A DNA stretch of 64,000 nucleotides, from positions 3,725,838 through 3,789,837 of the forward strand of contig CAJINV010000002.1 of NCBI GenBank assembly GCA_905178155.1. The letters are read 5' to 3'. A program made the translations under genes and the position numbers. Positions 8,782 to 50,746 of this stretch are shown here, in pieces (position 1 is the first letter of the stretch; each line of letters opens with the position of its first letter). The stretch is from Amoebophrya sp. A120. Taxonomy: Eukaryota > Protista > Dinoflagellata. The notes beneath the pieces are model-generated. The model was not told where the DNA came from, searched no databases, and saw nothing but the letters and a program-made list of their open reading frames with translations.

Positions 8782-11700
8782 TCAAAACGCGTGCGCGGCC
8801 ATCGCGTCGAGTTTCGCCCGTATCCAAGAAAAAAACATTGTAGGTGTAACTTTTTTGGAGGAACAGCATTACAAATTTGTCTGGCATGACAGCAAAAGCC
8901 TGTCATGCACAGATAGTACTTGAAAACGCCCTTTAATGGACCCTGCGATGCATGCCAAGCATGACAGACGCAATCATCTTGCATGTTGCGCATCAGAAAT
9001 TTACACTAACAACGTTTTTTTCTTGGATAGCCCGCAACACTGGATTATTCTTCTCATTGATCAGCTTTTCTTTCATCGATTTTCGTTGGTGCGCCCGCCC
9101 GGCGTTGGCATCTTCCAGAAAGCTTTTCGGTAGTATATGGATTGCGCAGACGGAACAAAAATCTCGGCCGTGGAAACATGTATTAGGCATAAGTAGGTCT
9201 TTGTCTTGCATAAACGGCAGAAGCAGTGTCTACTTTTACTAGGTTGGTCTATCTTTGCATGGAAAATTTTATGCGAATTCCATAACTCTTGTGCAAGTTC
9301 GAGGAGTGTCCATGATTTGTCATGCTACACTCTCTGACCGCAGGACAGGTGATCCGCATTTTGCATCACAGATTGCATCATTTGACAGTGTAATTCCATC
9401 TGAGCAGGCCATACGGCACTTTCCAACCAACGTTGTAGCCGTAGATGGATTTCATTTCGGGAATATGCACGACAAAAGTTCTACTGTACGTAGGTTGCTC
9501 TTAGAGCACAAACCGCACGACAGGTTTGATGCTCAGATGTTGGCGATATTTGTCATGCAGGTTCAGGCACAACGAACGACATCTGTCATGCAGTATTGCA
9601 ACTTCGGTACAGTGTAGTACTTTTGCTCTACATACCTCACCTGTTTCCCCACCACCCCTTTCGCCTATGGATGTGTCAGGATCGAAATCGACAAAATCGA
9701 AAAACTTGCGATGCATAAAATGCAGGGCACTGAAGGCCTGTATTGGGGAGCAGGCAAATGAGACCGATTGCAAGACTGTTTAGGGGTACGCAATGTGCTG
9801 CCAGAGTAGCATGACAGGAGCAGTCTTCTTTGTCCAAACAGCATGACAGACTGGAGCTGGGTGCTCCCGAAATTTGTCGTGCGCCACTTGGAAACTGAGG
9901 CCCCAACTGGTATCGACTCCATGCATCACAAAATTTTCGACTTTGTCAATTTCGATTCTGACACTCCCATATCGCCTGCCCCTTCGTGATTTTTGACGCG
10001 TCCCCCGTGAGCCACTTCTGGTATTGCATTCCCTTATCAAAAGGAAAGCCCCCCCCTCCCCATATCGAAAACGAAATTTGTGTTGCTTTATTTGAGTACA
10101 CAAATCGACTTGTATTGCTAGAAGGCCAAGGGACGCAGTTGTGCCCTCATTTGGAGTCAATTTGTCATCCTGTTTCCCGTTTCCAGGTGCTTCCTGTCAT
10201 TCTGAAGACGCAAGGTGTTCCTGCGCCAGCCAGCACTACAGTCCGCATCTTTTCCCTTCTAGCATCACGAAGCTGATTTGTGGCCACAAATCTGCATCAC
10301 AGATTTCCACTTTGATATGGGGAGGGGGCATTTTTCATTGTAATATCCCTCCGCCTTTCTCTTTTCGATCATCTTGGCCAGCGTCGTCACTTTTCCGTCA
10401 ACCTTCCGCACCTCTGGCGTAGCTGGGTGAAAGTTTTTCAGCGACGCGATCGGTTTGCCAAAATGCATGGCTTTCTCCATCGGCGTTTTGAGAATGTTCT
10501 TCTGCGCCACCGGCATCGCCAGGCACAGAGGGCTTTGGTGCACTCCGGTTTGGTTCAGCTGCACGCCGAATTTACTCGTTTTCGAAGACACGTGCCCTAT
10601 CCTGTGGAAAAACGTCCCCACCCTAGAGTCAATGATTGGGATCTTCTCTGCAACACAAAGCCCGACGGTTTGGGAATCACGCATGCGAAGTTCCTCGCTG
10701 TATCGATTGGAGTGAGGGTTAGCAAGCGCAAGGACAGCCGCATCACAAGGCCATGTCCTTATGCTGTTTCTAGCATTACAAATGCAAAAACGCGTTTGAG
10801 AATGCCTCTCATGCGGATGCGCATGACAAGTTTGCCTGTTATTGCACATCCGCATGACAATTCCGGGGTGGGACGTGTTTCCAAAGGGTATCTCCCTCAC
10901 TGGTCTCACTGCTGAACCCGAACATCCCCTTGAAAGAATCAAATGCAAAAGCATCGCACGCGTACTAATCGCAGATATGCATGACAAACCTGATTCCCAG
11001 GGTAAATCAGCATGACAAATTACATTTTTCATGCTGCGGAAATTTGTCATGCGATTTATACGTCGTACGACCATACTTTTGCAATGCTTAGAAAGAATCC
11101 AAAAACGATTTCAAAATGGATTTCGCTTCTTCCGCCTGTTTCCCGACATTCTCCGGATTGTAGTCGTCCTGCCCCAGGCCTTGTCCCACGAAAAAAGTGT
11201 TACAGTTACACATTTGTAGTCAATTCAGCAACACAAATTCCTCTGCATGAGAGAGAAAACTTGTAATGCAGAAATCCTAGGGGAAAACACCTATGAAGCG
11301 AGGCTCCTATGCATATCCGGCATGACAGAGCTTGTCTGTCTTGCTTGGCCTGCAGAGACTATGTGTAACTGTAACACTTTTTTCTTGCGATAGGCCTGCC
11401 TTCTGAAACCCCGGGTCCTTACTGTTTGTCGCCTCAATGCGAAAATTCGCCGCCCGGTGCACGTTATGAATTGCAAAAGTAACGGACTAGTTCTAGTAAA
11501 AATTGCAACACAAACTGGCTCAGCATTACAAATTGAATTTGTAATGCGGATTTGCCTTGGGAACTAGATTTGTAAATGCATAAATGCAATTAGTACGAGT
11601 ACGATACTTTTGCACAGGATACACGTCCCGAACCGAGGACCAGGTGGGATTCAATGTGGTGTGCTGCAGGTAATTCGCGTCAAAACAGCCGTGCAACACG

Positions 11701-14700
11701 TTTTCGCAGTAGTTTTGCTGGGCTTTCACGTTATCCTGCGCGGAGAGCATGTTGTCGTAGGGAAGGGGTTCGTAGGTGGGGATGTAATTCCCCGTAGCTT
11801 CGTCGATTTTGTAGATCTGCCGATCCAGTTATGCGAGTACACACCCCCCCTCTCCCTCATTTGTATGGCGTGGACAGCAACACAAACACCAGCACACGTG
11901 GAGCCTATGCATGACAAATTTATGTATCTGATGTAGTACTGTTTGGGCTCCCGGAATTTGTCATGCAAACAGTGCCACCGGGCAGCGGCTGGATTTGGGG
12001 TTCTACATGACAAATGAGGGCGTGGGGGAGTTGTGGACTGTCATACCAACCCGTGCCGGTACCACTTGCTGTGACCCGCCCACCACTTGCAAAATTCGTT
12101 ACTGCCCTGGTACGTGCCTTTGACCTCGGTACCCAACTCGGACTTCACGCCGGCGCTGATGTTTTTTGTGTATTACAAGTAGCATGTTGATCTGTAATGC
12201 TGTTCTCGCATGAGACAGTCTTTTTGCACTCCTCCCGCTGCATGACAAGTTGAAACAACCAGCACAGCACATCTACAAGAAATACGTGTAGTTTATCAGT
12301 TCCTTCGCCCCTCCAACTCCCTTCATCAGAAGCAGGAACGGCAGCAGCGCGAGCCCGGCCACATACGCTCCCGCAATGGACATGTTGCTTTTCTGCTTCT
12401 GGCAGCCTTGAAGAGACGGGTCCATTTCGCACTGGGTCGGCGTATCATCCCCGCACATTTCGTTCGACTTGCCGCGCTATGCAGTGGAAATGCGTCTGGG
12501 ATGTCTAGAAACTTGTCATGCTAGCTGGCGTATCACGAGGACCCCGCAATTTGTGGCGGCCACGCATGACAAGCTTTTGAGTTACTACTTGTTGTCTGTT
12601 CTGCGTATCAAACTTAGTTTTTGCATGACAAAAAAAAACTGGACTTATCTTGAGTGATGCGCATGACAGTTTTCAAAATCATGCTGGCAGCGCATGACAA
12701 AACTCGCAGTCTTCCAGCCCTCCCAGACACATATCTCTGTTCGATACCTGCCACATTCCGATCGAGTTGGGATCGGGGTTTCCCATCGGAGGGCGCCAGT
12801 CCTGGAAATTGTAGCCCGGCGGGGGGAGGGATCCGTCCGCTGGCATCTCCTTGGACTGAAATCCTTTCAGCTGGCACTGCCCCATACGAATGGGCACGAA
12901 GCGCAGGATTTCTTGGGACTGATGTTTATCCAGCTGGGCGTAGGGAAATTCGACCCGCGGCTTCCAGGTCCACTGCCAACTGACACAGCCCGGCGTGGAT
13001 ATGCAACGCGCAAGGCACTCGTTGGAAAAAAACCCGTTCCACGGCAGGGGCATGATAAACAGCTGAATGAACGGTATGTAGAACATATGCATTGCAGCAA
13101 ATATGTCTGGGTCTGGAAGGATACAAGTTTTGTCATGCTTGTCTGGCATGACTGAAGAGTTTGTGATGCGTATCCAAGAAGAGACCCATTGGTTGTCATG
13201 CAAAATTCGCGGTTTCTCATGCGGAAAGTGCAACACTAAGCTGCGCAAGTATTTCTCATGCTTTGCTGTGCATTACAGAGCATTAGCTAATCACAACTCA
13301 GCATCACAATTTTCCAGACCCGGACATATTTACACTTGATAGAACAGCGGCGGGAGCAATCTCGTGTACGAGTACTTCGCCGTGCCCGGACGGACGATAT
13401 CAAAGGGAAAAATGCCTCCACCCCGGAAGTTGTGATGCAAAGCTTCCAAAGGAAACTTTTTGTCTTGCATGAAAGGACTATGAGTCTTTCTGCTGCAGAA
13501 TCTTCTACATCGGTGTCGAGCAAGGCATCTTTTACATGACAGGCCCAGCCGTTGCTGGGGTCTTGCGCAACACAAATTCTAGCTATTCAGCATTGAAAAT
13601 TTGTGATGCTGAAACATGCACAAGAGGAGGAACGTTCCCAATGCATAGCTTTGCAATACAAATGCTGCCAGGTTATGGGCATTTTTCATTGCGATAGACG
13701 ATCCCCGTGATTTGGTTCTTTTTCAGCTCCTCCTTGCCGCACTTCTTCGACCCGGTGGGCCCGCTGACCGCCAGCCCCAGAGCCGCTTCCGGGTGGGCTA
13801 TCAAATGCAAATATGCCTGGGTCTGGAAGAATGCAAGTTTGTCATGCTTGTCTCGCATGACTCTACTTAAGTCTGCAATGCACGAGCAGGAAGGCAGCCT
13901 CTCACCTGTCATGCAAAAATGCAGTTTCTCATACGGGAAGCGAAAATCATAGGAGCTCAGAAACTTGTCATGCGTGGCTGCGTAACGTAGTGCGCCCACC
14001 ATTCACAAACTAGCATCACAAGTTTCCAGACCCAGACATATTTGCAGTTGATATGGGCCCGCGTGAAGCACGCTTGGTTCCCGAGCCCGTTCAGGTGCTT
14101 CTTTACCGGGTACGGACCTTGTTTGCAGCAGCAGTTGCCGTCTTCGTTTATCATATGTAAAAGCAGCCCCACGCCATTGTTAAGATGGGAAGTCCGCAAC
14201 ACAAATCCTCAAGTTTTGGAAGTTCTGCATGACAAATTTGGCCTCATAGTGTCTTCCTGTTTAGCTAGTTAAGCAGCATCACAGATCCAGCACAGTCAGC
14301 ATGCCGATTGGAGCATGACAAATTACTAAACACGACTACAAAATGCCTCTCATGGGGCTCCGCATGAGAAGCATTTTTACCATGCAGATTTGCATGACAA
14401 CTCTGGGGTGGGGACGTTTTTACTCAGGATATCGTTGGGCGTTTGCTCGAAATAGAGCAGCCGTTCGGCAGTGGTATCGCAAGAAAAAAGTGCTACAGCT
14501 ACACATTGTGTTGCAGGCCAAGCAGGACAGGCAAGCTCTGTCATGCCGGAGATGCATGGGAGCCTCGTCTCATAGGTGTTTTCCCGTAGGATCGATTTCT
14601 GCATTGCAAGTTTTCTCTCTCATGCAGAGAAATTTGTGTTGCTGAATTCACTACAAATGTGTAACTGTAACATTTTTTTCGTGGGATAAGTGGACGGTAT

Positions 14701-15842
14701 CTTGTAGTACGTGTACGCCCCTTCCTCTACAAAATCGTCCGGATCCGTGTTTTCGTTTATCCCGCCGCTGCCGTTATCTTCCACTTATTACAATGAAAAA
14801 TGCCCCCACCCCAAAACTTGGGAGCATTTGTATTGCAAGCCTTTCCAATGGCAACACTCACCGCGTTGCATGTATCAGCATCACAGATTTTCGGTAGCGA
14901 ATAACAAAAATCTGTATTGCAAAAGATCCCAGCAAGAGCGGCGCTTGTCATGCAAGTAGCGATGCGGTATACGACTAGACTCTGCATCAGAAAGATTCGT
15001 AGTCCTTTCAGGCATGACAAAAAGTTTTCATTTGGAAACTTCGCATCACAAATTATTGCAAACTTCGGGGTGGTGGCATTTTTCATTGTAATACCACTCG
15101 CACTTGGTTCACCGGCTCCTCGGCGGCGTTCGCCCGCCGCACCTGCTTCCATATGCATTGCAAAAATGTCTGGGTCTGGAAAAGTGGAACTTGTATTGCA
15201 TGTCTTGCATTCCTGAAAAATCTGTAATGCACAGCCAGCAAGAAAGGCGCTACTTTCTCGTCCTGCAAAAACGCAGTTTGTCATGCGTGCTACGCATCAG
15301 ACGGCGTCAAGTATGCCTGTCATGCATGGCTGCACTTGAAAGCGCCAGTCATCTTATCCAAACTTTAGCATCACAAATTTCCAGACCCAGACATATTTGC
15401 ATTTGATATTCCAGCACCGGGAACAGCACTCGGCCTGGCTGTGCACCCCGAAACAGGTGTCCCCTGGCGAGGGATCCCAGTTGGTTTTGAAAACGGGACT
15501 GGAAAGAAAGGAGGTGACAACGACATGGGTCGTCGTCGTGTGAGAATTGTTCATTTTTCCGCTACGACCATGGTGCAAACCTGCCGCGGTGGGAGTAGTT
15601 GTGATCAACATCATCGGCTCTCCATTTGATGTTCCTGGAAGTGGGGAAGATGTCGTCGTGACAAGCTGTGATGTTGCGTCGATAGTAGAAACATCCGTAT
15701 CTTGCAGGAACAGAGTGCTGTGGCGTCCTCGTATCGCTGGATCATCGTGGGCCGCCGCGTATGGAGGTGACGTTCCGGGTACTAACGTAAAGCGGTGGAG
15801 AAGCTCCTCGAGGGAGTTGGTAATCGAGTGAGAAAAACTCAT
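8782..15842 (-). CDS. Large Cys-rich protein with PAN/Apple-like motifs and a hydrophobic segment
   Basis: Continuous frame across 17 introners and 2 GT-AG introns; motifs SQAECCSRCW, ECLARCISTPGCVSWQW..GQCQLK; start codon uncertain. Confidence 0.65.
8821..9029. mobile_element. Introner family E
   Basis: TIR; TSD GCCCG. Confidence 0.92.
9136..9413. mobile_element. Degenerate introner (H-like)
   Basis: Imperfect TIR; frame restored on removal plus 5 nt. Confidence 0.65.
9666..9971. mobile_element. Introner family F
   Basis: TIR TATGGxxGTGTCAGxATCGAAAT; TSD TCGCC. Confidence 0.92.
10035..10345. mobile_element. Introner family D
   Basis: TIR with CCCCCTCCCCATATC; TSD TCCCT. Confidence 0.92.
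10598..10890. mobile_element. Introner family C
   Basis: TIR with AAAAACGTCCCCACCC; diverged TSD. Confidence 0.85.
10937..11090. mobile_element. Introner family B, variant AAT..TTA ends
   Basis: TSD GAAAG. Confidence 0.85.
11182..11392. mobile_element. Introner family E (TGT start)
   Basis: TSD GGCCT; reverse complement of 14475-14688. Confidence 0.92.
11465..11621. mobile_element. Introner family B
   Basis: TIR; TSD CACGT. Confidence 0.92.
11830..12045. mobile_element. Introner family G
   Basis: TIR; TSD CCAGT/CCAAC; close match to 26406-26629. Confidence 0.88.
12478..12746. mobile_element. Degenerate introner family A with GT-AG ends available
   Basis: Eroded TIR/TSD; minus strand CAG|GTATC..CATAG|CGC is in frame. 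Confidence 0.8.
13086..13341. mobile_element. Introner family A
   Basis: TIR; TSD GAACA. Confidence 0.92.
13398..13696. mobile_element. Introner family D-like
   Basis: TIR; TSD GACGA. Confidence 0.9.
13799..14053. mobile_element. Introner family A
   Basis: TIR; TSD TGGGC. Confidence 0.92.
14149..14431. mobile_element. Introner family C
   Basis: TIR; TSD TCGTT. Confidence 0.9.
14475..14688. mobile_element. Introner family E
   Basis: TIR; TSD AGTGG. Confidence 0.92.
14786..15093. mobile_element. Introner family D-like
   Basis: TIR TATTACAATGAAAAATGCC; TSD CCACT. Confidence 0.92.
15152..15408. mobile_element. Introner family A
   Basis: TIR; TSD TTCCA. Confidence 0.92.
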
Positions 15843-28855: not shown

Positions 28856-30639
28856 GGGTTTAATGTCCCGCAGAATATTTTTACGCATAGAAGAGCAGCA
28901 GCTACTCGTAGTACTTACTTTATACACACAGCCAAAGCTGCTGGTGCTCGTCTCTCAAGAAGTGTGTGGTCGCGTGAAAAAATACATGAAAGACAGCTCA
29001 AAGCCTCCTCCGGAAAAGCAAAAATTGTTTTTTCTTTACTTGATGTCGTAAAACTTTTTGGACTCTGCAGAACTGCACTCTATACTTTCTCTCTCTTCCG
29101 TTCCAGATTTTCATAATAAATCTCTAATCCAAGAACTGCTACTGCTGTAGGTCCATTCATTTCTATAGTCGATTTTTGTCCTCTACTCCTGAAAGCAAAT
29201 GTATCTCGACGCTGCGCGGAAAGAATGACAAATGGAAAAGGGCCGACCACTGCGGACCGGCTCTAGTATGTGGCACAGCCCGGAAGGAGGTGATAAAGAT
29301 GATCTCAAAAGATGAAGAATCGTGAGATATGACGTGCTGGCACTAGCATCAAACTACCACACTGTAATTGTGCCACGATATTATCTCTCTCGTCGCGACC
29401 ACTCAGCGCTGCAACATGATTAGGTGCCTAGCGCTGCGAGTCAGCAATCGTTGATGCCAGCGGCCGCGGGGCGGTTTCTAGATTGACACGTATCTCGGGT
29501 GAAGAACGTTAACCTTTCTGTTTCTTCGCACTTACTTACAAATAGTACCTAAAGCTAAAACCTCTACTTCGCACAGCTAGCCGCTTTTGCGTCTCTCAGA
29601 TAAACCTTGTATCACTGCAGCTCTTTGTTCTTCCACCACCCATGAGCAGCTTTGTTCGTCTCAACAAATGTAATGATGTCTGTGGTGCCTAAATTCAAAG
29701 GATCTTCTCGTGTGCCATCTTCTCAGTTCGCTTTTCTCAAGGTGTGCAGCTCTTCATCTGCGCTGGTCTCAAAAAATGAACGTTTTGAAATAAATCACCG
29801 TCAGCACCAAAACTCTTTTGCGCTAGTATTATGCAGCAGCACATCAGAACCAGAAGTACAACCAGAGTTGTTCTTGTGCCAGGAAAAAAGCTTAAAAAAT
29901 GGATCTTGCTCTCGAGGTGAAATTCTTGACTCAGCTTGTTCGGCGCTTTCGCGACAGAGACGCCTCTTCATCCGCTCCAGGCAAAAACTTCTGTGTGCTG
30001 CTGGATAGTGCTCGATGTTTTCATCAATCGGTCTAACTGTCTTCAACTGGTGGATCATGCGCGGAAGCTGCGACCCCTTAATACTTGTTGAACAAGTTCA
30101 ACAGATACAGTTCAGCGCCGCAAAAGTTAGATCTTTCTGTTCTCGAGGAAGTGACTCATCTTATCAATGGATCAACGAGAGTACTAGCATCTAGCAGCAC
30201 TTCTACTTCTCTCTCTGTAGACATCGGTAGTTGTCGCGAGATGGAATCTCGTTTTCAGCAGCAGCCACGACCCTGAACATATTGCATCACTCGGCTCCTC
30301 GTCCTAAGTTAGCAGATTTAGGGCAGAACACATGTAGTTTCAAGCTTGTTGTCTTCTACAGGACGCCACTTTGCACTCTGTTGGCCGCTATTCTATACGC
30401 GACCCAGAGTTATTACGGCACGCACCTGGGTTACGGTTATCATTTCATTCAAATGCCTTCATTCAGAAGTTTCGGTCTGGATGTTCTTCATCATCTCTTT
30501 CATAAAAGCGTGTTCATTTTTTTTCTTGTCCGAGGCACAACAGTTGTGCCTTCTCTGATATTCTATCATCCCCAATAGAATAAACTCATCACCCAGATTA
30601 TCGGAGCTTGCTTGTCGTCGTGAAATTCTTTCAAGAACT

Positions 30640-32311
30640 CTAAAATGCCTCGGGAAACAGCTGCTGCAGCTGCGCTATCGTATCTTCCGGATCTTTCACC
30701 GTGTTCCCCTTCACCCGCTTATCCGAAAAGATTTCAAAATCGTTGCCGCCCTGGAACGTCTTGTCTCCGAAAAAGTAAATCTTCTCGTATTTGTCTTCGA
30801 GGTACTGCAGACAGAAGGTCTTGTCCCAGCCTAGTAAAAATTTCGGAAAATTGCTTGGCAGTTGTAGCCCGATCACGCCCTCATATGCATTGCAAACTCA
30901 ATCATATGTTCATGCAGAAACTACAGCAGGAAGATAGAATTATTCGTATTCCACCGAATTTTTTTCCCGAGTTGAACTTGAAGTTGTACTCTTTTACTAT
31001 GCAGCGTCTGTACTACTATCAAATCACATACCGTTCGGAAACACGTCGAAACTTATTTGTCCCCCGATGCTGTAAGTGAGGCCGAAATCCGCAAATTCCT
31101 TCTTCAGAGTTTCCACGAATTTCTTCCTTATGTCGTTTGCAAGACAGAACTTCTCAAACTCGTTGCGCTCTGTGGTGTTGTTGATTTCAAGAAAAAACCG
31201 TTAATCTCATTCGTTGTACTGGAGAGGCACATGGGGAAAGGATCATGTTTTGAATTTGACGTCATGCAGTAACGCAAACCTACTACTAATATGTTCACAC
31301 TTGGAGAACTCCCCTTACCTTCCCTGCTGCAATTCCTGCCTATCGGGCTGACGTTGAGCATCCCCGTTCTGAATTCAATGAATGTGCCCCGCTTCACGGG
31401 TAAATCCAGGTCCGCAATTATCCGCTGCAAATGTGTTCGGGTCTAGAAGGATGCAAACTTGTGATGCGGCCTCAGGATCCTACAAGTACAAAAATCTCTC
31501 TTGCATGAACATCACAAGGGGTCCATTTTGTGCTACGAGAAGAGGGCATTTTTATGCGCTATAAGCATCAGAAGCTCCTGCAGCATCTGTGATGTTGCTA
31601 GAGAATTATGCATCATCGGTTTTCGAAAATATGCATGACAAACCTGGCACTTCTCCAGACCTCCCAGACATATTTGCAATGCATAGCGATGTAGTGGAGG
31701 CAAAAGTTTATCAGCTTCTTCAGCTTTTCTTCGCCTAAGAATTCTGCGAACGATGTTTCCTTCATGGGTTTGCCGTTCTTGTACGCGACAACCCCGTTCT
31801 CTGCGAAGTTGTAATCGAACATTTGCAGAGTTGTCGGCCCGAGTTGCTTATCAACTGGAAAAATGTCTGGGTCTGGAAGAATGCAACTTGTGATGCTGTA
31901 TTTAGATTCCAAAAAAATGTGTATTGCATGAGTGGCAAACGGAATGCAATTTTTGCTACGCTGAGAAGGCATTTGTCATGCGGAATAGGCATCAAGAAGC
32001 CCTCAAAAAATCTGTATTGCTAGGGTATGCATCACAGACATCATGGCTCATGCAAAACGTGCGTGACACGTGTCGGAATCTTCCAGACCCAGACATTTTT
32101 ACAGTTGATATTGCTCTTTCTGCTTCGGCAAGTCACTCCCGCCAACCACGCCGATGTTGACTTTTTGTCTCAATTTCTTGAGCGTGGTCATCATCGGCGG
32201 CTCAATCGAGAGCCGCGGTTTTGTTAGGGTCCCGTCGACATCGAAGAGGACAATCGTGTCCGAGGGCGTTGTCACGTTTTCCTGATCTGCACCGTCCGTC
32301 ATTTTTGCCAT
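30640..32311 (-). CDS. PMM: Eukaryotic phosphomannomutase (HAD family)
   Basis: Motifs [71 protein letters not shown]; 2 introners and 2 GT-AG introns (30831-31031, 31170-31318). Confidence 0.97.
31419..31685. mobile_element. Introner family A in PMM
   Basis: TSD GCAAT/GCGAT; removal gives HYIADLD. Confidence 0.92.
31849..32110. mobile_element. Introner family A in PMM
   Basis: TSD TTGCT; removal gives KEQLG. Confidence 0.93.
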
Positions 32312-35098: not shown

Positions 35099-38000
35099 TC
35101 ACGCTCCTTCCTCCCCCGCTCCCGCTCCCGCCGCAGCCGCCGCGGCGAGAAGTTCTTTTTGCTTTTTCATCGACCCCCTCAAGTTTCGTTTCTCGAACAC
35201 CACGACAGGGGCGGGGGCTTTTCCTTCTTCTTCCGCCGCTAGTAGTACCGCCGTCGTCTTCATCTCCGCAAACGACGGGCCGTGGAGGTTCTCCAAAAAC
35301 GAGGCAGCTGTCGATGGGGCCGTCGTGGCAGCCGGTGCTGGCTGCGCCACTGTCTGCGCTGGTTGCTGTTGTTCCGTAGGAGTGCTGGCGGTGACCGCAG
35401 CCTTGTCTACAACTTTTTCCTCTTCTTCTCCCCCGGCGCAGGCCGCGGCACAGTCCCCGCAACCACAGCTGGGCTTCTTCCGGCGTTTGAATCTTCCGTC
35501 GTCATAGTTCGGGTCGTTCGGATATCATTTGGAAAAACGTCCCCACCTCCCCAAAGCTGTAATGCAAATCTGCATGCTGAAAACTTTTCTCATGCGGAGT
35601 AGACCTCCCATGAGAAGCAGTTTCTATTCGGTGTTTTGAGATTTGTGATGCTTGAATCAGCATAGAAGTATGCTGGTGGATCTGTGATGCGGTTGCACCA
35701 GCTGAATACGATCAAACTCCTCGCCCAAATTTGTCCTCCGCAACAGCCGAAGCCTGGCGATTTGTATAGCAGATTTCCCATCTTGACTCTGGGGTGGGGA
35801 CGTTTTTGCTCACCATATCGGATCGTTCGTCACGGCAAATCCGCGTTCGTTCACGCTTATCAAATGCAAAAGTATCTGGGTCTGGAAGGTGGTAACTTGT
35901 GATGCTGTCTTTGGATTCCAAAAAAATCTGTATTGCATGACTAGCAAAAGGAGTCCATTTTGTGCTACACGGGGAGGGCATTTCTCATGCGGAATAAGCA
36001 TCAGGAAGCCTTCTAAAAATCTGGGGTGCTAGGGCATGCATTACAGGCGTCATTGGTCATGCAAAATATGCACGACAAACCTGGCAATCTTCCAGGAGAC
36101 CCAGACATTTTTACACTTGATAACGCTCGATGTCGTGTTTCCCTTTTTCTGTTCCTCCGCCGGTGCAGGTGACGCGGCGGGTGGCGCGTACGCCTCCACA
36201 ATCCCGCTGTTTTCCTTCGCGAGCTGCGCCTGGGAACTCGTGATGCATTGCAAATATGTCGTGTGGGTCCTGCTCTGGAAGATCTCTCATGCGAGATGAT
36301 TTGCAAGACATAACTACCAGATCTGAATCTGTAGTGCATGAAACGAAGTCGCGACCTCTTTTGTCATGCAGAACCAGACATATCTACATTCCATACTCGT
36401 CCCCAGCGGCACTTTCGTCTCGGCAATCACGTTCAGTTCCTCGTCGAGAGAAAGCATGGAGAGTATGCAATACAAATATTGTCCCGGCGTTTAGGTACAA
36501 ATTGCATCACAAGTTCAACTTCTGTTTCTGGCAAAAAGTTCTACTACCCAAAAAAAGCTGCTCCTATGCATCACTTTGTAATGCTGCGCAAGGCAGCAGG
36601 AACACAATGAAAGACGTTGTCATGCAAGATGTGCCCGTGTCTGGAAACAACAGATGTTCGCCGGCCTAGAGACAGAAGTCGTGCTACTCGGCAGTTCCTC
36701 CTGCGTGTGGTCGTCGCTGGGAGCGGTGATCATGGAATCCGCAGGACTTATTTCACTCGTCCTTCCCAAAGATGAGGTCTTCACACGTTTCGTTATCGTT
36801 TCCAGCACAGCGCTTCTCGCCACATCGGACAACGAAGATGGGGCAGTGAAAATTTTCGCAGACGGCGGTTCTTCACCCTCTAAAGCCGTCGCGGACAGGA
36901 ACGAAGAGGAGGCCGCCGCTGCCTCTTCGTCGTCATCTACTTCAGTGGCCGGCACGGCTTCTTCTTCTGTACTACTAGTACTCTTGTTTATTTTAGCGCT
37001 ACCGCCCTCCTCCGACATGTCCATGGGCCCAGACTTGGGATCGGAATCGCAGCAGCCACCCGTCGTGCTAGCACTGGTCGTACTACTACCCTCCTGCTTT
37101 TCTTCCTCCGCTGGTTGTTCTTCCTTCGGTGCCGTTTGTTCGGGGAGTCGTGGGGCAATCTCGGCTGCGTCGGGTTGTTCTGGTTCCGCGTGGCTGCGTT
37201 TCTTGCTTTGCATCTTCAACATCTTCTTCGCCTTCCACCTGGCAGTCGCAGTTTTTTTCCTTCCGGTCGTTGTGGCCAAAAAGCTGCTACTACTGGTCGA
37301 TGCTGCTGCGTCTTCCTCCTCTTCCTCGTCTTCTCCCTCCTCCTCTTCGTCGGACGGTGGCTGTTTCTTTTTTTTCGTTTTTGCAGACGACTTTGAGGGC
37401 CGCTTATCTACTTCCTCTTCATCGGACGGGGGCGGCTGCGTCACCGGTGTGTTGCCACCGCAACAGGAGTTCAGGCCCAAAAAATCGTCTGCGTACATAA
37501 CGTCGGGGTCTGAGTCTTCGCTTTCTTCTTGTTTATTGTTCCCGCCCTTTTTGCCGCCTTTGTTTGCTCCTTTTTTCGGAGGAGCGGCCTCATCTTCCTC
37601 CTCCTCACCACCACTGTATTCGTCGTTGCCACCATCATCACTTCCACCCTCATCCTCCTCCTCGTCGGACGCCTCCTGCTTTTTCTTCTTTGCCGGCTCT
37701 TGTTTCATCTTGTTTCTCCCCTCGGAGGTAGCTAAGAACGACGACGCGGCGGAGGGTGTTGTCGCACCAGCCGCAGAAGTTCTTGTCTTCGTATCTTCAC
37801 TCGCAGTCGCGTTTCTGTTTGCAGTGTCACTCGATGTCGCAGAGGACGCACCATCCTCTTGTTCTCGTCCCAATACCGTCTTGAAGATAGCGTTCCCTTC
37901 ACCACCACCTCCTTCCTTCCCCGGCTCCGGCACCTCGCCCGCAGCTCGTGGCTCCTATCGTAAGGAAACGTCCCCCCTCCCCATATCGAAAAGGCATGCC

Positions 38001-41000
38001 TATAGAGAATTTGCGATGCTGATTTGTGGCCACAAATCGCGTCTGTCTTGCAAGAAAGCAACGGCATAGGCTCCGCCCCATCATATGCAGGCGGTTTGTA
38101 ATGCTGTTCGGCCTACAGCATAGACGTTCCTCATGCTAAGAGCCTAGGCCAGAACCTCTCTCCATTGGCATGGTATGGGCCTGCAGTCCTCTACTGCAAG
38201 ACAGATCTGATTTGTGTACGCAAATCCAGCATCAGAGATTTCGTTTTGATGTGGGGAGGGGAGATTTTTCACTTTGATAATTCCTCCTGCTCTCCTTTAC
38301 CCCGTCCTTTATTCCCTTCACCTTCATCGGCCTCTCCGCCGCCGCAAGAGTTACCTCCTCCGCAAGATCTACTTCCTCTGCGGTGCTCCGGATCATTGGG
38401 GTTGCCGTGCCCGTTCTTCCCTTCCCCCCCGAGGTTATCCTCGTCGTTCTGCTCGACGGCTTGCTTCATGAATTCGTCCGCTTCGTCGGTGTATGAATTG
38501 CAGAAATGTCTGGAAGATTGGAACTTGTCATGCTAAAACCAAATCATGCAAAAATCTGTGTTGCATGACTGCCAAAAGCTGTCCTCTTTTGACCAAGCTG
38601 GGGGGGAGTTTCTCATGCAGGATAGGCATGACAGAGACGTCACAGACTCTGTCATGCTCGGCCCTGCATTCCGAAACTCATGGGGCATGGCAAATATGCA
38701 TGAGGAGTTTGCATTCTTTCAGACCCAGACATTTTTGCATTTGATACGGTGATCGCTTGGCGTGCAGTGTTGGTGGAGGTGGCGAGAAAAGACGACGAAG
38801 ACGGCGGTGTTGCGGTAATGATCGTCTGGGAATCTTGTTTTTCATCCAGATTTTTTACTCCTCCCGCAGACTTCATTTCCTTCGGACTCCCCTGAGTTGA
38901 CGTGTCTTCCTCCACCTCAGATTTATTTTCGTCCGGGTCCCCGCAGCATGAATCGAGGGATTTCGGATGCGGCCGAATGCGGTGGATGCGGCCGGCATCT
39001 CCAGCTTCGTTCGCCGCTTTATTCCCCCCGTCGCTGGCACCTGTCCCTTCGGCGGTCGCAGGCGGAGCAGCGGTGGACGGGGGCTGCGGCGGCCCAGAAG
39101 CAGTTTGTTGTAACGACGTTTGGCTGCTTTCCTGTTCTTGGCCTCTTTCTTGTAAAAACGACGAGGCGCCAGCAAGAACTCCTGTTTTCGTGTTTGCCAA
39201 CGAGCTCCCGCTAGTGCGAGAGGTGGGCGGCGTCGAGGCTGTAGTTGTACTACTCCGACTTCTACTGCTTCCAGGAGGTGTGTGCAGAGGAGCAGCTTGT
39301 TCCTGTAGTTCCTTACCGCCCACCTCCAGTTCTCCCTCCTGCAAGAAAGATGTGGTCGCGGCGGCTGCGGAAGATGAGGAACTACTGCTCAGCATCACAT
39401 GTTGGTATCCCGTCGCAGCTGGTGGACCAACTTGCAGGACGGCATTTGTTTTCGCCGGAGGCGGCCCACCCTCTTGGTCCACGATGAGAATCGGTTCGGC
39501 AGCAGGATGAAGCACCGGTGCGTTTCTTGCCGACCCAGCTGGAGGGGAGGACACTCCAGCTGCGCCGGCTCGTCCTGGTTGCGCCAGCGTTGCTTCTGGC
39601 ACCGCTGCTGCGGTCGTACCTGGCCCCGCTCCTCCTGCTGTGTTTGCAGCCGCACCAGCCACGGGCTTTTCCATCGGTGCGTCTAGTGGGAAGAAGCCGC
39701 CGCAAGACGTCTCTCCGTCTCCGCCACAGGGTGTTGAGGCGGGCTTCGGCGGCGTGGCCGTTCGTGTCTGCTGCTGGGCCACCGCAGCGGCTTGTTTTGC
39801 CCCGGCCCGCGGGTCCCCCACCAGCTGGAGCCCGCCCCCGTGTTGCGGGTTGTACAGCAGTGGACCACGTTCGGCTTGTAGCGCCGGCGCTGTTCTTGCC
39901 TCCCCGGAAAATAAACCGGATGGCATCTTCAACACGGGGTCGAGGAGCTGCAACGCTGGTCCACCACCTGTCGGCAACAGCGGGCTCATATGGGAGTGCC
40001 AGCATTGAAATCGTCAAGGTTGAAATTATAGCTTGCCATGCATAAACTGCAGCGCACAGAGTGCCTGTCTTGCAGAGTAGGTAAGTGAGGCAGATTGTAA
40101 GCCTGTTGAGGGCTAGAAGCTGAGCTGTAAAGTAGCATGACAAAAGGCGTCTCCCTTACCCAAACAGCATGAGGAGCTGCATTTTGGCTCTACCAAAATT
40201 TGCCATGCGCCACTTAGTATCTGGGTCACAACTTTCATCCATAACATGCATTACAAGTTATTCCAACTTTGTTGATTTCAATCCTGACACCCCCATAGCT
40301 CATCCCGGTTGAGTCTGACCCGCCGACCATGAAAACAGTGGTAGATTTCGAGTGTCCAATGACGTTATCAAAAAATGCAAAGAACATGTCTGGGTCCTCC
40401 TCTGGAAGAGTGCGGTAGATTGTCATGCACATTTTGCATGACCCATGATGTCCGTGATGCATGTCCTAGCATCTTCGCAGATTTATTTTTGAGGGCTTTT
40501 TGAAACTTACCTACCCCGTATGATGAGAAACAAAGGCCCTTGTTTCCGCGCAGGAAAAAGTAAAGTCTTGTTGTTGCTCATGCAATACAGGTTTTTTTCG
40601 AGTCCAGAGGTTGAAGCATGACAGGTTGCACACTTCCAGACAAGAACATCCAGGGATCAATATTTTTGCATTTCATACACATTGCCCTGTTCGTCCGTAA
40701 TAGGTGTGTAGGATTCTTCGATCACACCCTGCGCTTTCGGTTCCTCGTTCGCCAGTGTCTGCAACTCTTCCGCAGGCGTGGGTAGCGTGTCTGCGGGGAA
40801 GAAAGGAGCCGACGAGGCAGGGGTGGGGAAACTACTCGGTGAGGCAGAAACTACGGTCCTCGTGGGCTCCGTGTCATCCGCTCCCAGCGTTGTCGTGTGT
40901 GGTTGGGCACGAATAGGATCTCCTTCTTGCGATCCTTGCGCCGACTGGAGGGGGTCTTGAGGTTCTTTCACGTCATTCCCTCCGGCCTCGGTTTGTGGTG

Positions 41001-43891: not shown

Positions 43892-44174
43892 TATCAGATG
43901 CAAATACGTCTGGGTCTGGGAGATTCCAACGAGATTTGTCATGCTAGTCTGGCATGATGTTCACTCTGAACTCTGTGCTGCGTCACCGCAAAGAGCTCCT
44001 CTTGGTCTTGCCTGTCATGCAAATAAAACGCAGTTTCTGTTTCTCATGCGGAGTACGCAACTCAAAACCACGAAAAAACTTGTCATGCTTGGCACTGGCA
44101 GTGCATTCGAGTGTGCGCACTATTTCCTTCCTTGTATCACAAGTTTCCAGACCCAGACATACTTGCAGCGCATA
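43892..44174. mobile_element. Introner family A (3' UTR of VIT)
   Basis: TIR; TSD ACTTT/GCTTT. Confidence 0.88.
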
Positions 44175-44230: not shown

Positions 44231-47200
44231 TCAGAGTCTGCTTATCAGCATCTGTTCAAACGCAATATAGAAGTGTCAGAATCGAAATTGACAAAGTCGA
44301 AAAATTTGTCATGCATAAAATGGATTCCAAATCGAACCCAGTTTCTAAGTGGCGCATGACAAATTCTGGTGGTGCCTAAATGCTGTTTAGGCAAAGAAGA
44401 CAGATACTCTCCTACTGCTTTAGCAGCTCGAGCTGTAACCCCAAACGGGCTTACAATCGGCCTCACTTGCCTGCTCAGCAACGCACGTATTTCGCGTCAT
44501 GCATTTTATGCATCACAAATTTTTCGATTGTGTCAATTTCGATCCTGACGCCTCCATACGCAAAGCCGACAAAGTAACTCAGCGTCCCAGCCACTGCACC
44601 GTTCAACAGCGTGAAGAGCCCGTTTTGGCTATCCTGAGGAAAAAAAATCCCCCCACGTCCCCACATTCAACAGGAAAGAAATTTGCGACGCAGATAATTA
44701 TTTGTGGCCACAAATCACCTTTTTTCCTATGCAAGAAGGCGAGCGGAGAGGCTTGCTCTGCCCCATTTTTCTGGAAGCGATTTGTCATGCTGTTGGACCC
44801 GCAGGGTAAGTAGCCCTTACTGCAATACAGACTGTATTTGCGTAGAAGTACGGAAATCCAGCATCAGAAACTTCGTTTTGAGAAATATGGGGAGGGAGGT
44901 TCATTTTTCAACTGGATAATGGAGGATTTTGTCCCAACTCTGCTTGACCAAAAACGCCGAAATCGCCCCGACGCAGAATAAAGCGACGGCGGAAACCACA
45001 CACGCGACGATGTAAACGACATTGATATCCCGGTCCTCTTCTTCCCAAGCGAAGCCCAGCAGGTAGACGTACAGCGGCAGTGCGCCGAAGACCAGGAAGG
45101 ACCAGAAAGTTGCTATTGTGAGGAAAAATCCCCCCTCCCCATATCGAAAACGAGATTTGTGATGCTGGATTTGAGTACACTTGTATTGCTAGAAGGCCAA
45201 GAGACGCAGACGCGGCCTCGTTTGCAGGCAAATTGTCCTGCTGCTTCCCACTTCCAGTTGCTTCCTGTCATGCTGAAGACGCAAGGCAGTATCACAAATC
45301 ATGCTACACAAAAAATCTCCAGTTGAGTATGGGGAGGGGAGATTTATTTTCATTGTAATAGTTGCGACCCCGTTCTTGACCAGATCACACTCGGACTCGG
45401 TTTCGGCTTCTAAGTTCAGTTATCCTATGTAAAAACGTCCCCACCCCATAGTCAAGATGGGGAATCGGCTAGACAAGTCCACAAGTCTTGGCTATTTTGC
45501 ATGACAAACTTGAACTCGGAGTCCAGTGCTGTTTGAGGTAGTTCAGTAGCATCACAGATCTAGTACATCATGCTGATTGGCGCATTACAAAACACGGCCA
45601 GAGAATGCTTCTCATGGGGCTCCGCATGACAAACATTTTGAGCATGCAGATGTGCATGACAACTCTGGGATGGGACGTTTTTACACAGGATATCAGCTCG
45701 TACCGCATCATGTTGTCGATGAAAAGATGCTATTAACTGCAAATCTGTCTGGGTCTGGAATAAAGGTTGAACCTGTATTGCGTGTTTCGCATTTTTCCAA
45801 AAAAAACTGTATTGCATAGTCAGCAAATAATAAAGCGCCACACTTTCGTCATGCAAAAACGCAGTTTGTAATGCGTCCTGCGCATGACAGAGCGTTTGAA
45901 AAGTTTGTCATGTTGCGCCGCACTTAAATGCACAGTCAGCCATGACCATTCAGCATTACAAGTTTCCAGACATCCAGGGATATTTGCAATCCATAGATGC
46001 TCGTATTTCCCCATAATCGCGACCAGTTGCTTCGCGTCGTCTTCCTCCATTTGCTCCCTTTCCCGCAGCATCTCCACCATCTCGGCCTTCTCTATAACGC
46101 GCTCAGCTGTTACAACCTCAAACGTTACAATAGAATCTGGAAATCTGTGATGCAAGAGTGCATGATCTAGCCGATTCTCAGGGGATTTTGCATGACAAGT
46201 TCCAGAGCCCCAAACCCCACTACAATCTGGCGAAATTTGTATTGCAAAAAAGTGGAGCGCTCTGCGAGTCTGTCATGCTCATCATGCAAGACAAATCTCA
46301 GATTCTATTGTAACGTTTGAAATTGTAACACCTGAGCGGGTTATACTCTCGTGCTCGGGTTTTTTCCGGAACTCCGTCACTTCCTTCTGCTTTTCCCCCT
46401 CGACGAAAGATTTCTCCAACTTTCCAGAGATGAAATCGCCAAACCCCATGGAGAAGCCGTCCGCTTATCCATTGCAAATATCCCTGGAGGTGGTCTGGAA
46501 GGGTGGAACTTGTAATGCGTGCCTTGCATTCCTAGAAAATCAGTGTTGCATCAGCAGCAAATTATAAGCAGCTTGTTCCCTTGTTCTGCAAAAACGCAAT
46601 CTGCAATGCGCGTCAGGCAGCAGAAAGCGTTGTGGTTTCGAAAGTTTGTCATGCTTGGCTTCCATTGCACGCGTTGCAGTCATGCGCCATGCAGCATCAC
46701 AGGTTTCCCGACAACATCCAGGGTGGATAGTTGCAGTGCATACCGCTAGAACGTTCGCAATTCCGAGTGTGACCGTGACCCCGTAGGAAAGGTGCGCCCC
46801 GTATCACACAGAAAAGAGCAGGCAGGTCATTTGTAATGCAAAAATGAATAAACAAAAAGGATTTGGATTGCATATCCCCAACAGTATGCCATGGGGCCGC
46901 CGATGACAAGTTTTTCTGTGTATCTGTATTCGTTTTTGCATTACAAACATGCCCTGCCAGCTTTTTTCTCTCAGATACCCCGTGGGCCGAGGAAATGATG
47001 GAAAACGTTGTGATCACGCCGTCAATATGCATGGCAAATATCCCTGGATGTCTGGAAGGTTGCAACTTGTCATGCTCAATCTGCAACATACAAAAATCAC
47101 TGTTGCGCGAGTACCAATAAAAGCTGTCCACTTGTGACCAACTGCTCGACGAGAGGGAGTTTCTCATGCAGGATAGGCATGAGACATAGACCTTGCAAAA

Positions 47201-50200
47201 TCTGCCATGCTAGGTCTGCACTGCAGACCTCACGGGTCATGGAAAACCTGCATGACAAGCTCTCCACTCTTCCAGACCCAGACATATTTGTGTTCCATAG
47301 TCGATTCCGCCGTAGACGGCAGATTTCAGAAATATCACACAGAAAAAAACTGGCAGGTCATATTTGTAATGCAAAAACAAATAGACAAAAAAATTTGCAT
47401 TGCATATCCTAAACGGCATGCTATGAGGCCGCCCCTGACAGATTTTTCTGTGTATTTATTTTTGCATTACAAATCTGCCCTGCCAGCTTTTTTCTGTGGG
47501 ATAAGAAACTGTGCGTTCTTGAGACCCGCGTGCATGGTTTCCAGATGCTGAGTATGGATTGCAAAAGTGTCTGGGTCTGGAAAGGATGTAACTTGTCGTG
47601 CTAAATCTGAATCATGTCAAAATCTGTGTTGCATGATTACCAAAAGCTGTCCACTTTTGACCTAATCGAGAGGCAGTTTCTCCTGCAGGATAGGCATGCT
47701 AGAACTCTCACAGAATCTGTCACGCTGTGTCCTACAAATTAGACCTCACGGGTCACGGAAAACCTGCATGACAAGCCTGGCATTCTTCCAGACATCCAGG
47801 GATTTTTGCATGTGATACTGGGCGAGATTGGAGACGGAGGAGTTTGAGGTGGTATCGGAAGCTACTTCGTATCCTTTGGAAAAACGTCCCGACCCCTTGG
47901 TCAAGTTGGGAAATCTGCAAGACAAATCAACAAGCTTTGGCTGCTGCGCATGACAAGTTTGGCCTCGTAGTGCGCTCCTGTTTAGGTAGTTTAGCAGCAT
48001 CACAGATGTAGCGCATGATGCTGATTGGAGCATAACAAAATCCAAAACACGGCTAGAAATTGCTTCTTATGGGGCTCCGCATGAGAGACATTCACATTCT
48101 CACCATGCAGATTTGCATCACAACTCTGGGGTGGGGACGTCTTTACACGGGATACTTCGCTGTTGCTGTTTTCTGGGATCACGATGATGTTTTTATTCCC
48201 GACATAGTCTCTATGGGAGTGTCAGGATCGAAATCGTCACTGTTGAAATAATTTGTGATGCGCAAAACGGATACCAGTTGGCGCCTAGTTTTCAAGTGGC
48301 GCATGACAAATTTTCCTGGCCTCTAAAGTAAGTCTGTCATGCTGTTTCGGGCAAAAGGGCTCCCCTCTGTCATGCTAATCAGCAACCCAATTCTCGACCC
48401 TTGCCAGCACTACAATCTGCCACCCTTGCGTCCTCTGCAATAGTGCCAGTCTCTGAGTTGCATTTTATGCATGGCAAACCATTTCAACTTTGACGATTTC
48501 GATCCTGACACTTCCATAGTCTCCCGGCGCCGCGTCTTGCTTCAAGGTAACGGCGTTTAGGTCAATTGCGGGTTTTGATGTATCGTCGTAATTCATCTCC
48601 GTCGATCCGGGGCTGCTTGTTCCCGGGACCGCGGGGGCAGCAGCTCCGCGGGGGCTACTCGTCGGCGTGTTGAACTTGTTGCTGCCAGGTTTCGACGACG
48701 CTCCACCATCGGTAGCACTGCCACTACTCCCCGCCACCTTAGGCGTTTTTATCCAAGGAAAAAAGTATTAGTTTCTTTTGTAGTGAGTTCAGCATCACAA
48801 ACTTGCCTTGCATGTCAGAGAAAATTTGCAATGCAGTGATCATAAGGCAAAACACAAACAAAACGAGGCTCGAAAGCATTTTGTGCATGGCAAAGGCTCT
48901 CTGTGATGCTTGTCCCGCAACACAATGTGTAACTGTAACACTTTTTTCCTTGGATAGTTTTCTGCTTTTCCTTAATCCGCGTGATCATCTCGGTGTAAGA
49001 CCGTGCGGAATCGTACTCAACACTACTCTATGAAATGCAAATGTGTCTGGGTCTGGAAGGTTGGAACTTGTAATGCTGTCTTTGGATTCCAAAAAACTCT
49101 GTACTGCATGACCAGCAACAGAAGTCCAGTTTGTGTTTTTACGCGGAGAGTGCATTTCTCATGCGGGATAGGCATTAGGAACAAGCCCTCTAAAAATCTG
49201 TGATGCTAGCTCATGCATTACAGGCATCAGGGATGATACAGAATCTGCATGACAAACCTGGCAATTTTCCAGACCCAGACGCATTTGCATTTGATATGCT
49301 CGTTGGTGTCGTCGCCACGGAAATGACCGACGTTCCGGTGGAGATCGCAGTGGGCGATTTTGCGTTCTGACTTTTGTCCTTCTTTACACGGGCTGCAGAT
49401 ATGGCTATGAAAAGGAAAAAACAAACCGTGCTAGCGTCTCTTTCCATGGGGAACAATTTGATTACTTCCACGGAAGTGTAGTAGCTATGCATGGCCAGCA
49501 CAGTGTGGCTTTTTCTCTTTCTTCATCTGCAAAACTAACAAGTTTACGAACATGCTGTTCTATTAAAAAAAAAGCGTCACTAGCACAGTCTTGTTCCTGG
49601 ATAGTCGATCTGCTATTTCTCCTATAATTTTTACTATCTATACGAAGTGGGTTATCGTCCGAAAAAACTGCTCTTTCACTGTGACCAACATCAATCAATG
49701 TACAAGATTTGCATGACAACCCCGGGCTAGTACACATGACAAGAAGATTCTTCCATGTGTTGCTGTTCCACCTCCGTCAGGGAAGACGAATATTAGAACA
49801 TGTGGAAAATAAACAAATGCCCCTCCTTGTTGCATTTACAGCAAAACAATCATGTGCGATGTGTTGCAGTTGTCTCTACTGCATCTTCACAAGTGCGCAG
49901 TGAAACAGTGTTTATTTCGTGCGATATATCTTGGTCGACCCATCCGGGAATTCCTGCTGAATGTATTTTTCCTTCTTCTTATCATGTGGAAAAACGTCCC
50001 CACCCTAGGCTTGTCCTGCTCATATGTGCATGCCCAGAGTTTTTTGATATGTGTATGCTCAGTTCGTCCCAACATTTTGAGGACTACGGAGTGGAGACGT
50101 GTTTGCGAATCGGATACTTTTTGTGCTTTACTTTCGCTGCATACGAGCTGTTTGTTGTACCGTCGTCAATACTGCGACACTCCTCTTCACACTCTTGAAA

Positions 50201-50746
50201 CGAAACTTGTATCACTATGAAATCATGCGCCCCCGCCACAGAAGAACAAAGAAATGGCTGCGAGGCTCCCAATGAGGTTTCATCAGCAATGGAAACTGCT
50301 GCATGGGCCGCCGTGCAAGTCAGTACCTATATCAGCATGACCAGTTCCATTCAACCCAGAATATTAGCGAAAGCCTGTGCAGCTGCACAGCGCCGCAGGA
50401 CAAGTATAGAAGCGTGGTCTGTATTTACTAAAGTCTTCTGGAGCGGAGCTGCACAATGCCTTCCTGCAATGCAAAGCGTATTTGTGTATACAAATCCAGC
50501 ATCAGAAGTTCCGTTTCAGTATGGGGAGGGGGCATTTTTCATTTTGATAGGGAGGTCCTCCGCCGGTTCTTCACTTCTCTCGTCGACATTGTCCAAGGTC
50601 TTTATGTTTGCTCTTGCTACAAGATCTGGGGTAGAACTAGAGGGTGTGTTAGCATTGAGCGAGATAAAATTATGAGCGGGGGTTGAATTAATATCGAGCG
50701 CCGGAGACCGACTCTCCATCGTTGAGGTAGTGGAAGACGAGCTCAT
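44231..50746 (-). CDS. VIT1: VIT1/CCC1-family vacuolar iron/manganese transporter with long N-terminal extension
   Basis: Spliced motifs AVYGGIDGVITTFSII, LGIANVLADGFSMGFGDFIS, PEHEKAEMVE, ATFWSFLVFGALPL, LLNGAVAGTLSYFVG; exons 5' of ~49400 uncertain. Confidence 0.88.
44266..44558. mobile_element. Introner family F
   Basis: TIR; TSD CGCAA. Confidence 0.92.
44630..44918. mobile_element. Introner family D
   Basis: TIR; TSD TTGGC/ATGGA. Confidence 0.85.
45114..45360. mobile_element. Introner family D
   Basis: TIR; TSD GTTGC. Confidence 0.92.
45421..45692. mobile_element. Introner family C
   Basis: TIR; TSD TCAGT/TCAGC. Confidence 0.9.
45731..45995. mobile_element. Introner family A
   Basis: TIR; TSD GATGC. 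Confidence 0.92.
46093..46345. mobile_element. Introner family H
   Basis: TIR; TSD TTCTC/CTCTC. Confidence 0.9.
46466..46742. mobile_element. Introner family A
   Basis: TSD CCGCT; removal gives LADGFSMG. Confidence 0.92.
46802..46977. mobile_element. Introner family I
   Basis: TIR TATCACACAGAAAA; TSD CCCCG. Confidence 0.92.
47026..47299. mobile_element. Introner family A
   Basis: TSD GTCAA/GTCGA; removal gives GGIDGVITT. Confidence 0.92.
47333..47503. mobile_element. Introner family I
   Basis: TIR; TSD AGAAA. Confidence 0.92.
47553..47817. mobile_element. Introner family A
   Basis: TIR; TSD CTGAG/CTGGG. Confidence 0.9.
47870..48154. mobile_element. Introner family C
   Basis: TIR; TSD CTTCG. 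Confidence 0.92.
48212..48518. mobile_element. Introner family F
   Basis: TIR; TSD GTCTC. Confidence 0.92.
48750..48956. mobile_element. Introner family E
   Basis: TIR; TSD GTTTT. Confidence 0.92.
49029..49296. mobile_element. Introner family A
   Basis: TIR; TSD TACTC/TGCTC. Confidence 0.9.

Follow-up and report, generated by a model that had tools for sequence, protein, structure and literature searches.

The phosphomannomutase (PMM) gene of Amoebophrya sp. A120 is interrupted by two short inverted-repeat elements, and none of the six possible cut registers of either gives GT-AG, GC-AG or AT-AC ends. The locus raises the question of how such elements leave the transcript, and at exactly which bases. 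An initial annotation of the window, the 64,000-nt stretch of DNA analysed here, had located both elements and noted the lack of canonical ends, in each case correctly (Table 1), and had proposed that precisely one element and one copy of its target-site duplication (TSD) are excised.

The PMM inserts belong to a system that is already known, the published introner elements of A120. The available text of Farhat 2021 (PMC7789003) describes A120 introners with inverted repeats that start TAT + 7 nt + AAA, direct repeats of 3-5 nt and non-canonical splice sites. A 5-bp duplication is given in the legend of Fig. S19, no putative transposase is reported, and the border position is called unknown or variable, with no clear dinucleotide signature. 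All three features, elements, 5-bp repeats and non-canonical ends, have thus been in print since 2021, and the loss of an element plus 5 nt is a rediscovery. What the present analysis likely adds is a fixed 1+4 register with the consensus N-UAU...AUA-NNNN, which exposes a splice code that had been reported as unknown. No paper found states a fixed register for Amoebophrya introners, most subscription papers lying outside the search; nor was one found in the parts consulted of the related introner and intron literature (PMC11282704, PMC11453091, PMC12005148, PMC12787238). Figs 3 and S19-S23 of PMC7789003 may partly anticipate the 1+4 register, which the portion of its text covered does not state.

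Results

Inverted-repeat elements with 5-bp duplications populate the window

An initial scan for TAT...ATA inverted pairs, in which the flanks were ignored, found 66 terminal inverted repeat (TIR) pairs, 40 of them flanked by an identical 5-nt repeat and another 14 by a repeat that matches at 4/5. Five of the 66 were mis-paired or poorly matched (flank match <3/5) and were removed before curation; two of these were later restored unchanged, two were re-paired and one was excluded. The curated set comprises 89 elements, which occupy 22,097 bp. An exact 5-nt repeat flanks 53/89 (shuffle mean 0.65, maximum 6 in 10,000), and a match of at least 4/5 flanks 72/89 (shuffle mean 2.6). The duplication length is 5, not 4 or 6, and the 53 perfect duplications share no fixed target base.

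The elements fall into 12 families, the biggest with 30 members, and 11 elements are unplaced. All four ends of the PMM elements start with TAT + 7 nt + AAA. Lengths of 137-358 nt, TIRs, a TSD length of 5 and a longest Met-ORF of 111 aa are traits of the MITE type. A Pfam search of 9 frames from a pair of longer element copies gave no match, and no transposase was found. In predicted folds the ends pair in 89/89 elements and all three tip pairs form in 74, counts that are biased by the TIR-based selection. PMM element 1 is predicted to fold end to end (-99.3 kcal/mol, z -9.1), and the ends of element 2 are still paired (-75.5 kcal/mol, z -1.0). The elements are short non-coding inverted-repeat introners, likely derived from DNA transposons.

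Two long copies, 54339-55544 (1,206 nt) and 60918-62756 (1,839 nt), are bounded by TIRs of the known families and by perfect 5-nt duplications, but their internal cargo is unrelated; judged from sequence only, their 1+4 removal would leave a flanking minus-strand frame open. Unpaired element ends in the curated set lie at 4072, 40677, 63873 and 63913, the last of which likely belongs to an element that runs past the window edge.

Elements are removed from RNA together with five nucleotides

Two sets of contigs from one sample, X3 and X5, skip the elements. Their RNA label is a guess, but GT-AG introns are missing from the contigs as well. Thirty joints were found and 15 listed, of which 13 correspond to an element plus 5 nt and the other two to GT-AG introns. 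Length sums taken over 4 and 14 elements agree exactly (212=212 and 1602=1602).

In PMM, joints 31843>32111 and 31413>31686 skip 267 (262+5) and 272 (267+5) nt, respectively. The five exons add up to the 1,221 nt of the RNA contig, whose ORF is the annotated 260-aa PMM (P0002); exon 1 alone matches a 260-aa protein of Amoebophrya sp. A120 at 100%, and the unspliced reading meets a stop at residue 71. A sequence re-check bore out the junction peptides KEQLG and HYIADLDLP that the initial annotation had derived, with one additional residue if element plus 2 nt is removed instead. Its appeal to conserved PMM spacing was insufficient for junction 1: among 104 matching PMM sequences, only 68 show a distance of 23 from GGSD to F/YxENG, and some have an extra residue there. 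Junction 1 is not fixed by protein conservation alone and is settled by RNA.

This PMM copy is expressed, and the best 120 of 1,202 matches contain only one full-length A120-named PMM. An unnamed 118-aa PMM record (P0001) is identical across junction 1 and then diverges into a 30-aa tail, for which no significant match was found in the window (best E 0.045; compared with 31780-32311). Upstream of PMM, a GC-rich stretch (32550-34600; 61% over 32001-34000) is element-free and has almost no RNA-contig cover.

The same rule extends beyond PMM. Four annotated A120 proteins match the window exactly (P0002, P0121, P0123 and P0124), although the annotation was possibly built on related RNA data and hence is no independent evidence. 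Their introns comprise 2 element and 2 GT-AG introns in P0002, 17 and 1 in P0121, 19 and 0 in P0123, and 5 single elements, 1 double element and 2 GT-AG introns in P0124. For the VIT1-family gene, both junction peptides foreseen by the initial annotation (GGID|GVITT and LA|DGFSMG) occur in P0123, all 19 introns are element+5, and the RNA contigs show for this gene, as for PMM, the exact loss of an element and one TSD copy. An element in the VIT 3' UTR (43892-44174) is also spliced as element+5, so that reading frame is no guide to the cut. The excision had been held to be efficient and base-precise. Its precision stands in the RNA contigs; its efficiency is weakly supported, as contigs give presence and not rates.

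P0121 is encoded at 8996-15842 (798 aa, 17 element introns); a hydrophobic stretch is predicted by eye, a Pfam search of the protein gave no match, and a homolog of 53% identity lies on a 3.3-kb metagenomic contig. Within the gene for P0124, a WSC-domain protein, elements 6476-6731 and 6738-7048 (window 6472-7049) are separated by 6 nt. At this double junction 577 nt are removed, equal to 316 + 261, which is compatible only with separate removal of the two elements; under a 1+4 cut it implies either a 1-nt exon at 6733 or stepwise removal.

A different origin of the joints would be DNA from which the elements had been cut, either through elimination of the kind known for ciliate IESs or through precise excision of a transposon, with the clean copy then transcribed. 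TIRs and duplications are hallmarks of DNA transposons, and only one DNA-type run, X1, bears on the matter, its junction table swamped by repeat matches. That run covers a silent intergenic stretch evenly, and its contigs are unbroken and free of differences across exon-element borders (30000-31654, 32085-35578). X1 behaves as DNA, and the elements are retained in this one run. Moreover, the skipping contigs also lack GT-AG introns and so come from spliced RNA, and the cut register described below tracks the transcript, not element orientation. We therefore consider excision from DNA very improbable, and removal of element plus 5 nt at the RNA level highly probable.

Two raw-read RNA runs with the same species label, X11 and X13, placed 5 and 46 reads in the window and left the PMM exons uncovered. 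A few of these reads match element ends with different flanks (32077-32111, 45429-45475), and they possibly come from a related strain with the same TIR families.

A single cut register is common to all informative junctions

Where the two copies of a repeat differ, the mRNA reveals how many bases of the upstream copy it retains (k). Imperfect repeats made 18 junctions informative, nine through RNA and nine through annotated proteins, and each defines a window of permitted k (Table 1). Values of k from 0 to 5 are compatible with 2, 6, 8, 10, 18 and 8 of the 18 windows, respectively. Four is the sole value that every window permits, and this holds for the RNA windows and the protein windows taken separately. 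Under a uniform register, multiplying the window widths gives 1.1e-7 as the chance of this agreement (0.006 if the RNA windows alone are used), before a sixfold correction. Three RNA windows rest on piece ends, not on listed joints, and five protein windows (9136, 10598, 5804, 5415 and 50210) belong to elements with an end set after the junction was known. Without those five, 13/13 still meet only at k=4, which is fixed by 37956 and 9464.

Table 1. Features of the window and values of k (bases of the upstream repeat copy retained in mRNA) permitted at informative junctions
Feature	Position	Strand	Permitted k	Details
PMM (phosphomannomutase) gene, PF03332	30640..32311	-		260-aa product; four introns (two element, two GT-AG) between five exons
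PMM element 1	31849..32110	.		262 nt; TIR 31/32; from the 30-copy family
PMM intron 1, inferred register	31845..32111	-		267 nt; AT...CA
TSD copy (TTGCT), transcript-upstream side of element 1	32111..32115	+		5 nt
TSD copy (TTGCT), transcript-downstream side of element 1	31844..31848	+		5 nt
PMM element 2	31419..31685	.	3-5 (RNA, listed joint)	267 nt; TIR more decayed than in element 1
PMM intron 2, inferred register	31415..31686	-		272 nt; CT...TG
Imperfect TSD copy GCAAT at element 2	31414..31418	+		position-3 base absent from mRNA
Imperfect TSD copy GCGAT at element 2	31686..31690	+		position-3 base present in mRNA
PMM canonical GT-AG intron	31170..31318	-		RNA contigs
PMM canonical GT-AG intron	30831..31031	-		RNA contigs
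VIT1-family gene (P0123)	44231..50746	-		540 aa; 19 introns, all element+5
Element 43892	43892..44174		0-4 (RNA, listed joint)	
Element 44630			1-4 (RNA, listed joint)	
Element 45421			1-5 (RNA, listed joint)	
Element 46093			0-4 (RNA, listed joint)	
Element 47026			2-5 (RNA, listed joint)	
Element 37956	37956..38279	.	4 (RNA, piece ends)	repeat copies differ at positions 4 and 5; 4 kept
Element 42308			3, 4 (RNA, piece ends)	
Element 36464			1-5 (RNA, piece ends)	
Element 12478	12478..12746	.	4, 5 (protein)	junction peptide WQG needs 4 or 5 kept
Element 9464	9464..9634	.	4 (protein)	1/5 repeat match; annotated protein permits 1+4 cut only
Element 9136	9136..9413		4, 5 (protein)	2/5 repeat match
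Element 49653	49653..49926	.	4, 5 (protein)	2/5 repeat match; junction peptide STKIL needs 4 or 5 kept
Element 50210	50210..50549	.	4 (protein)	1/5 repeat match; protein permits 1+4 only; one end set post hoc
Element 10598			4, 5 (protein)	shift of 6 also fits
Element 49406			1-4 (protein)	
Element 5804			4 (protein)	
Element 5415			2-4 (protein)	

The imperfect repeat of PMM element 2 (ATCGC/ATTGC on the minus strand), which the initial annotation had singled out as a test of the cut register, shows that the mRNA carries the position-3 base of the upstream copy, ATCGC, and the RNA by itself permits 3, 4 or 5 retained nucleotides. The joint at 31413 excludes a register with 2 nt kept, which would give AG at PMM element 1. 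For PMM intron 1 the length comes from RNA and the register is inferred from the other junctions, because its own repeat is perfect.

It could be argued that the register slides within the repeat or varies by element, and that the shared value is an effect of small sample or annotation. Most junctions are uninformative, and automated TSD calls for A120 families in the consulted part of one dataset (21 of 58 rows) range from 2 to 5 nt, with varying mechanism labels (PMC12130899). Against this, the value 4 lies in every window, with the chance probabilities given above, and the junction peptides of 12478 and 49653 were predicted before the proteins were retrieved and both predictions proved correct. 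A variable register is improbable.

Members of one family in opposite orientations (12478 versus 31419 and 47026) both exclude the mirror register, k=1, and therefore the offset follows the transcript, not the orientation of the element. Junctions with 0-2 of 5 repeat matches have the same 1+4 offset, and therefore the direct repeat is not needed for the cut; it is a remnant of transposition and does not act as a signal for splicing. The latter junctions also speak against the joints being falsitrons, that is, reverse-transcriptase template switches across the hairpin between direct repeats. A hairpin with a direct repeat is a known substrate of that artefact, as the covered text of PMC8240250 describes, and our RNA evidence is all cDNA-based. 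A stall at the hairpin base would, however, likely leave the downstream copy complete, an outcome permitted by only 2/18 windows, and the early stop in the unspliced PMM reading also counts against template switching. We judge this explanation highly unlikely.

The intron is thus very probably N·TAT…ATA·NNNN, with cuts placed 1 nt ahead of the element and 4 nt beyond it in both orientations, as fits 18/18 junctions. Such a 1+4 register replaces the earlier absence of a splice signature with named nucleotides (+2U, +3A and -7 A) and would permit re-annotation of intron borders in A120.

Conserved bases at the intron ends

The following counts assume minus-strand transcription throughout, which is supported for the four annotated genes and assumed elsewhere. 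At the 1+4 register, 32/89 introns start with GT, 5/89 end with AG and 1/89 is GT-AG; 46 different end pairs occur. The PMM introns (AT-CA and CT-TG) lack canonical U2-type GT/GC-AG ends. An AG acceptor was considered and rejected, AG standing at -2/-1 in 4/84 elements versus 6/84 in the exonic copy.

By contrast with these free ends, +2T, +3A and A at -7 are invariant in the 89 introns, although the initial TAT...ATA scan inflates tip invariance. Mutated 5' tips are altered only at +4 (4 cases: TAC twice, TAA, TAG) and mutated 3' tips only at -6/-5 (3 cases: ACA, ATT, ATC); none is altered at +2, +3 or -7, a pattern that base pairing alone does not predict. Since the invariant bases pair with the mutated ones, this points to strand-specific recognition, with the count biased by the initial search. 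In 13 cases the repeat copies disagree at position 5; the intron then begins with G in 7/13, and the corresponding exon base is G in 0/13 (sign test p=0.016). Mismatches per repeat are slightly higher with +1 G (mean 0.91 vs 0.61, means compared only).

The donor of the element introns, N-TAT-C/G, resembles those of the canonical introns in the window (GTATGT, GTAAGG and GTATTT). All five canonical introns found start with GTA, and three have A at -7. No clear branch consensus was seen upstream of the -7 A. With a branch A at this position, the distance to the 3' cut would be only 6 nt, which is unusually short.

Discussion

Together, the fixed register and the strand-asymmetric tips suggest that the elements are probably removed by spliceosomal chemistry, in the form of a modified major spliceosome. 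The covered text of PMC7789003 states that A120 keeps U2, U4, U5 and U6 together with 83/89 of the spliceosomal proteins searched, and that U1 snRNA was not found. In its Table S4, 9/9 predominant non-canonical pairs of A120 have T at +2, and 9/9 of those of A25 start with TT (Farhat, PMC7789003).

On this basis a mechanism may be outlined. The palindromic tip would supply both signals, whichever way the element inserted. Its 5' end, N-U-A-U-S, would mimic a GUAUGU donor with +1 relaxed, and its 3' end would offer the A at -7, which we put forward tentatively as a branch point. The 3' cut could be measured from the -7 A or from the hairpin base, not at an AG, and the long hairpin is predicted to bring both intron ends together. 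Since the 1+4 offset adds up to the length of the duplication, the coding sequence present before insertion would be regained wherever the element landed. The full scheme, a U1-snRNA-free, AG-free splice code of A120 in which one tip is donor (N|UA) and branch point (-7 A) and the acceptor is set by a 4-nt ruler, is a speculative but serious possibility. If it is true, any TAT...ATA transposon that creates a 5-bp duplication turns into an intron that leaves no scar, whatever its insertion site or orientation, and the spread of tens of thousands of introners through the A120 genome would be accounted for. If the spliceosome does remove the elements, they would offer a rare example of a 3' splice site chosen with no conserved dinucleotide.

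The main rival accepts the same RNA-level 1+4 excision and assigns it to a structure-directed nuclease and ligase that read the hairpin base, for which tRNA-splicing-like, IRE1/RtcB-like or euglenid-like activities are candidates. The paired ends of all 89 predicted folds, with their selection bias, the dispensability of AG (5/89) and of G (32/89), and the U1 snRNA not found in A120 according to the covered text of PMC7789003 all agree with such an enzyme. The drift of +1 to G and the strand-asymmetric invariance of +2U/+3A resemble a spliceosomal donor instead, the canonical introns share the GTA start (5/5), elements with pairing-breaking tips are still spliced, and the Euglena signature is absent. 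We consider the nuclease-ligase route unlikely, though far less so than the other alternatives, and favour spliceosomal removal.

Comparison with known systems places these elements among several kinds of unusual intron, each as far as the consulted portions of the cited papers describe it. Like the introners of Aureococcus, Symbiodinium and Polarella, they are non-autonomous TIR elements that act as seamless introns (10.1101/2020.10.14.339549, PMC9860276, PMC12130899), some of those, as here, lying in either orientation or having 5-nt duplications (PMC9860276, PMC12130899). Those introners recruit or carry GT/GC/GA + AG and need particular targets (PMC9860276, PMC12130899), whereas the A120 elements are GT-AG in 1/89 cases at the inferred register and have no fixed target base. 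Euglenid nonconventional introns share a non-GT-AG majority, end-pairing and slidable direct repeats, and their boundaries were resolved via non-slidable cases, the same logic as here (PMC12501133). The Euglena signature N3CDG...CH'GN5-6|R (PMC12501133) is nevertheless absent from our elements, which have TAT at +2 to +4 and ATA at -7 to -5, with T at +4 in 81/84. In Fritillaria, too, the majority of introns lack GT-AG ends, and the major spliceosome is retained (PMC13326754); U1 snRNA persists there and AG-A(N) ends predominate (cited in PMC7789003), whereas A120 is reportedly without U1 and leaves the 3' dinucleotide free. The closest match is the published description of A120 introners itself (PMC7789003), with the same organism, a length of ~240 nt, hairpins, non-canonical sites and repeated families. 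In contrast to that account, as far as its text was covered, the elements studied here have one register (1+4), an N-T-A donor and an invariant A at -7.
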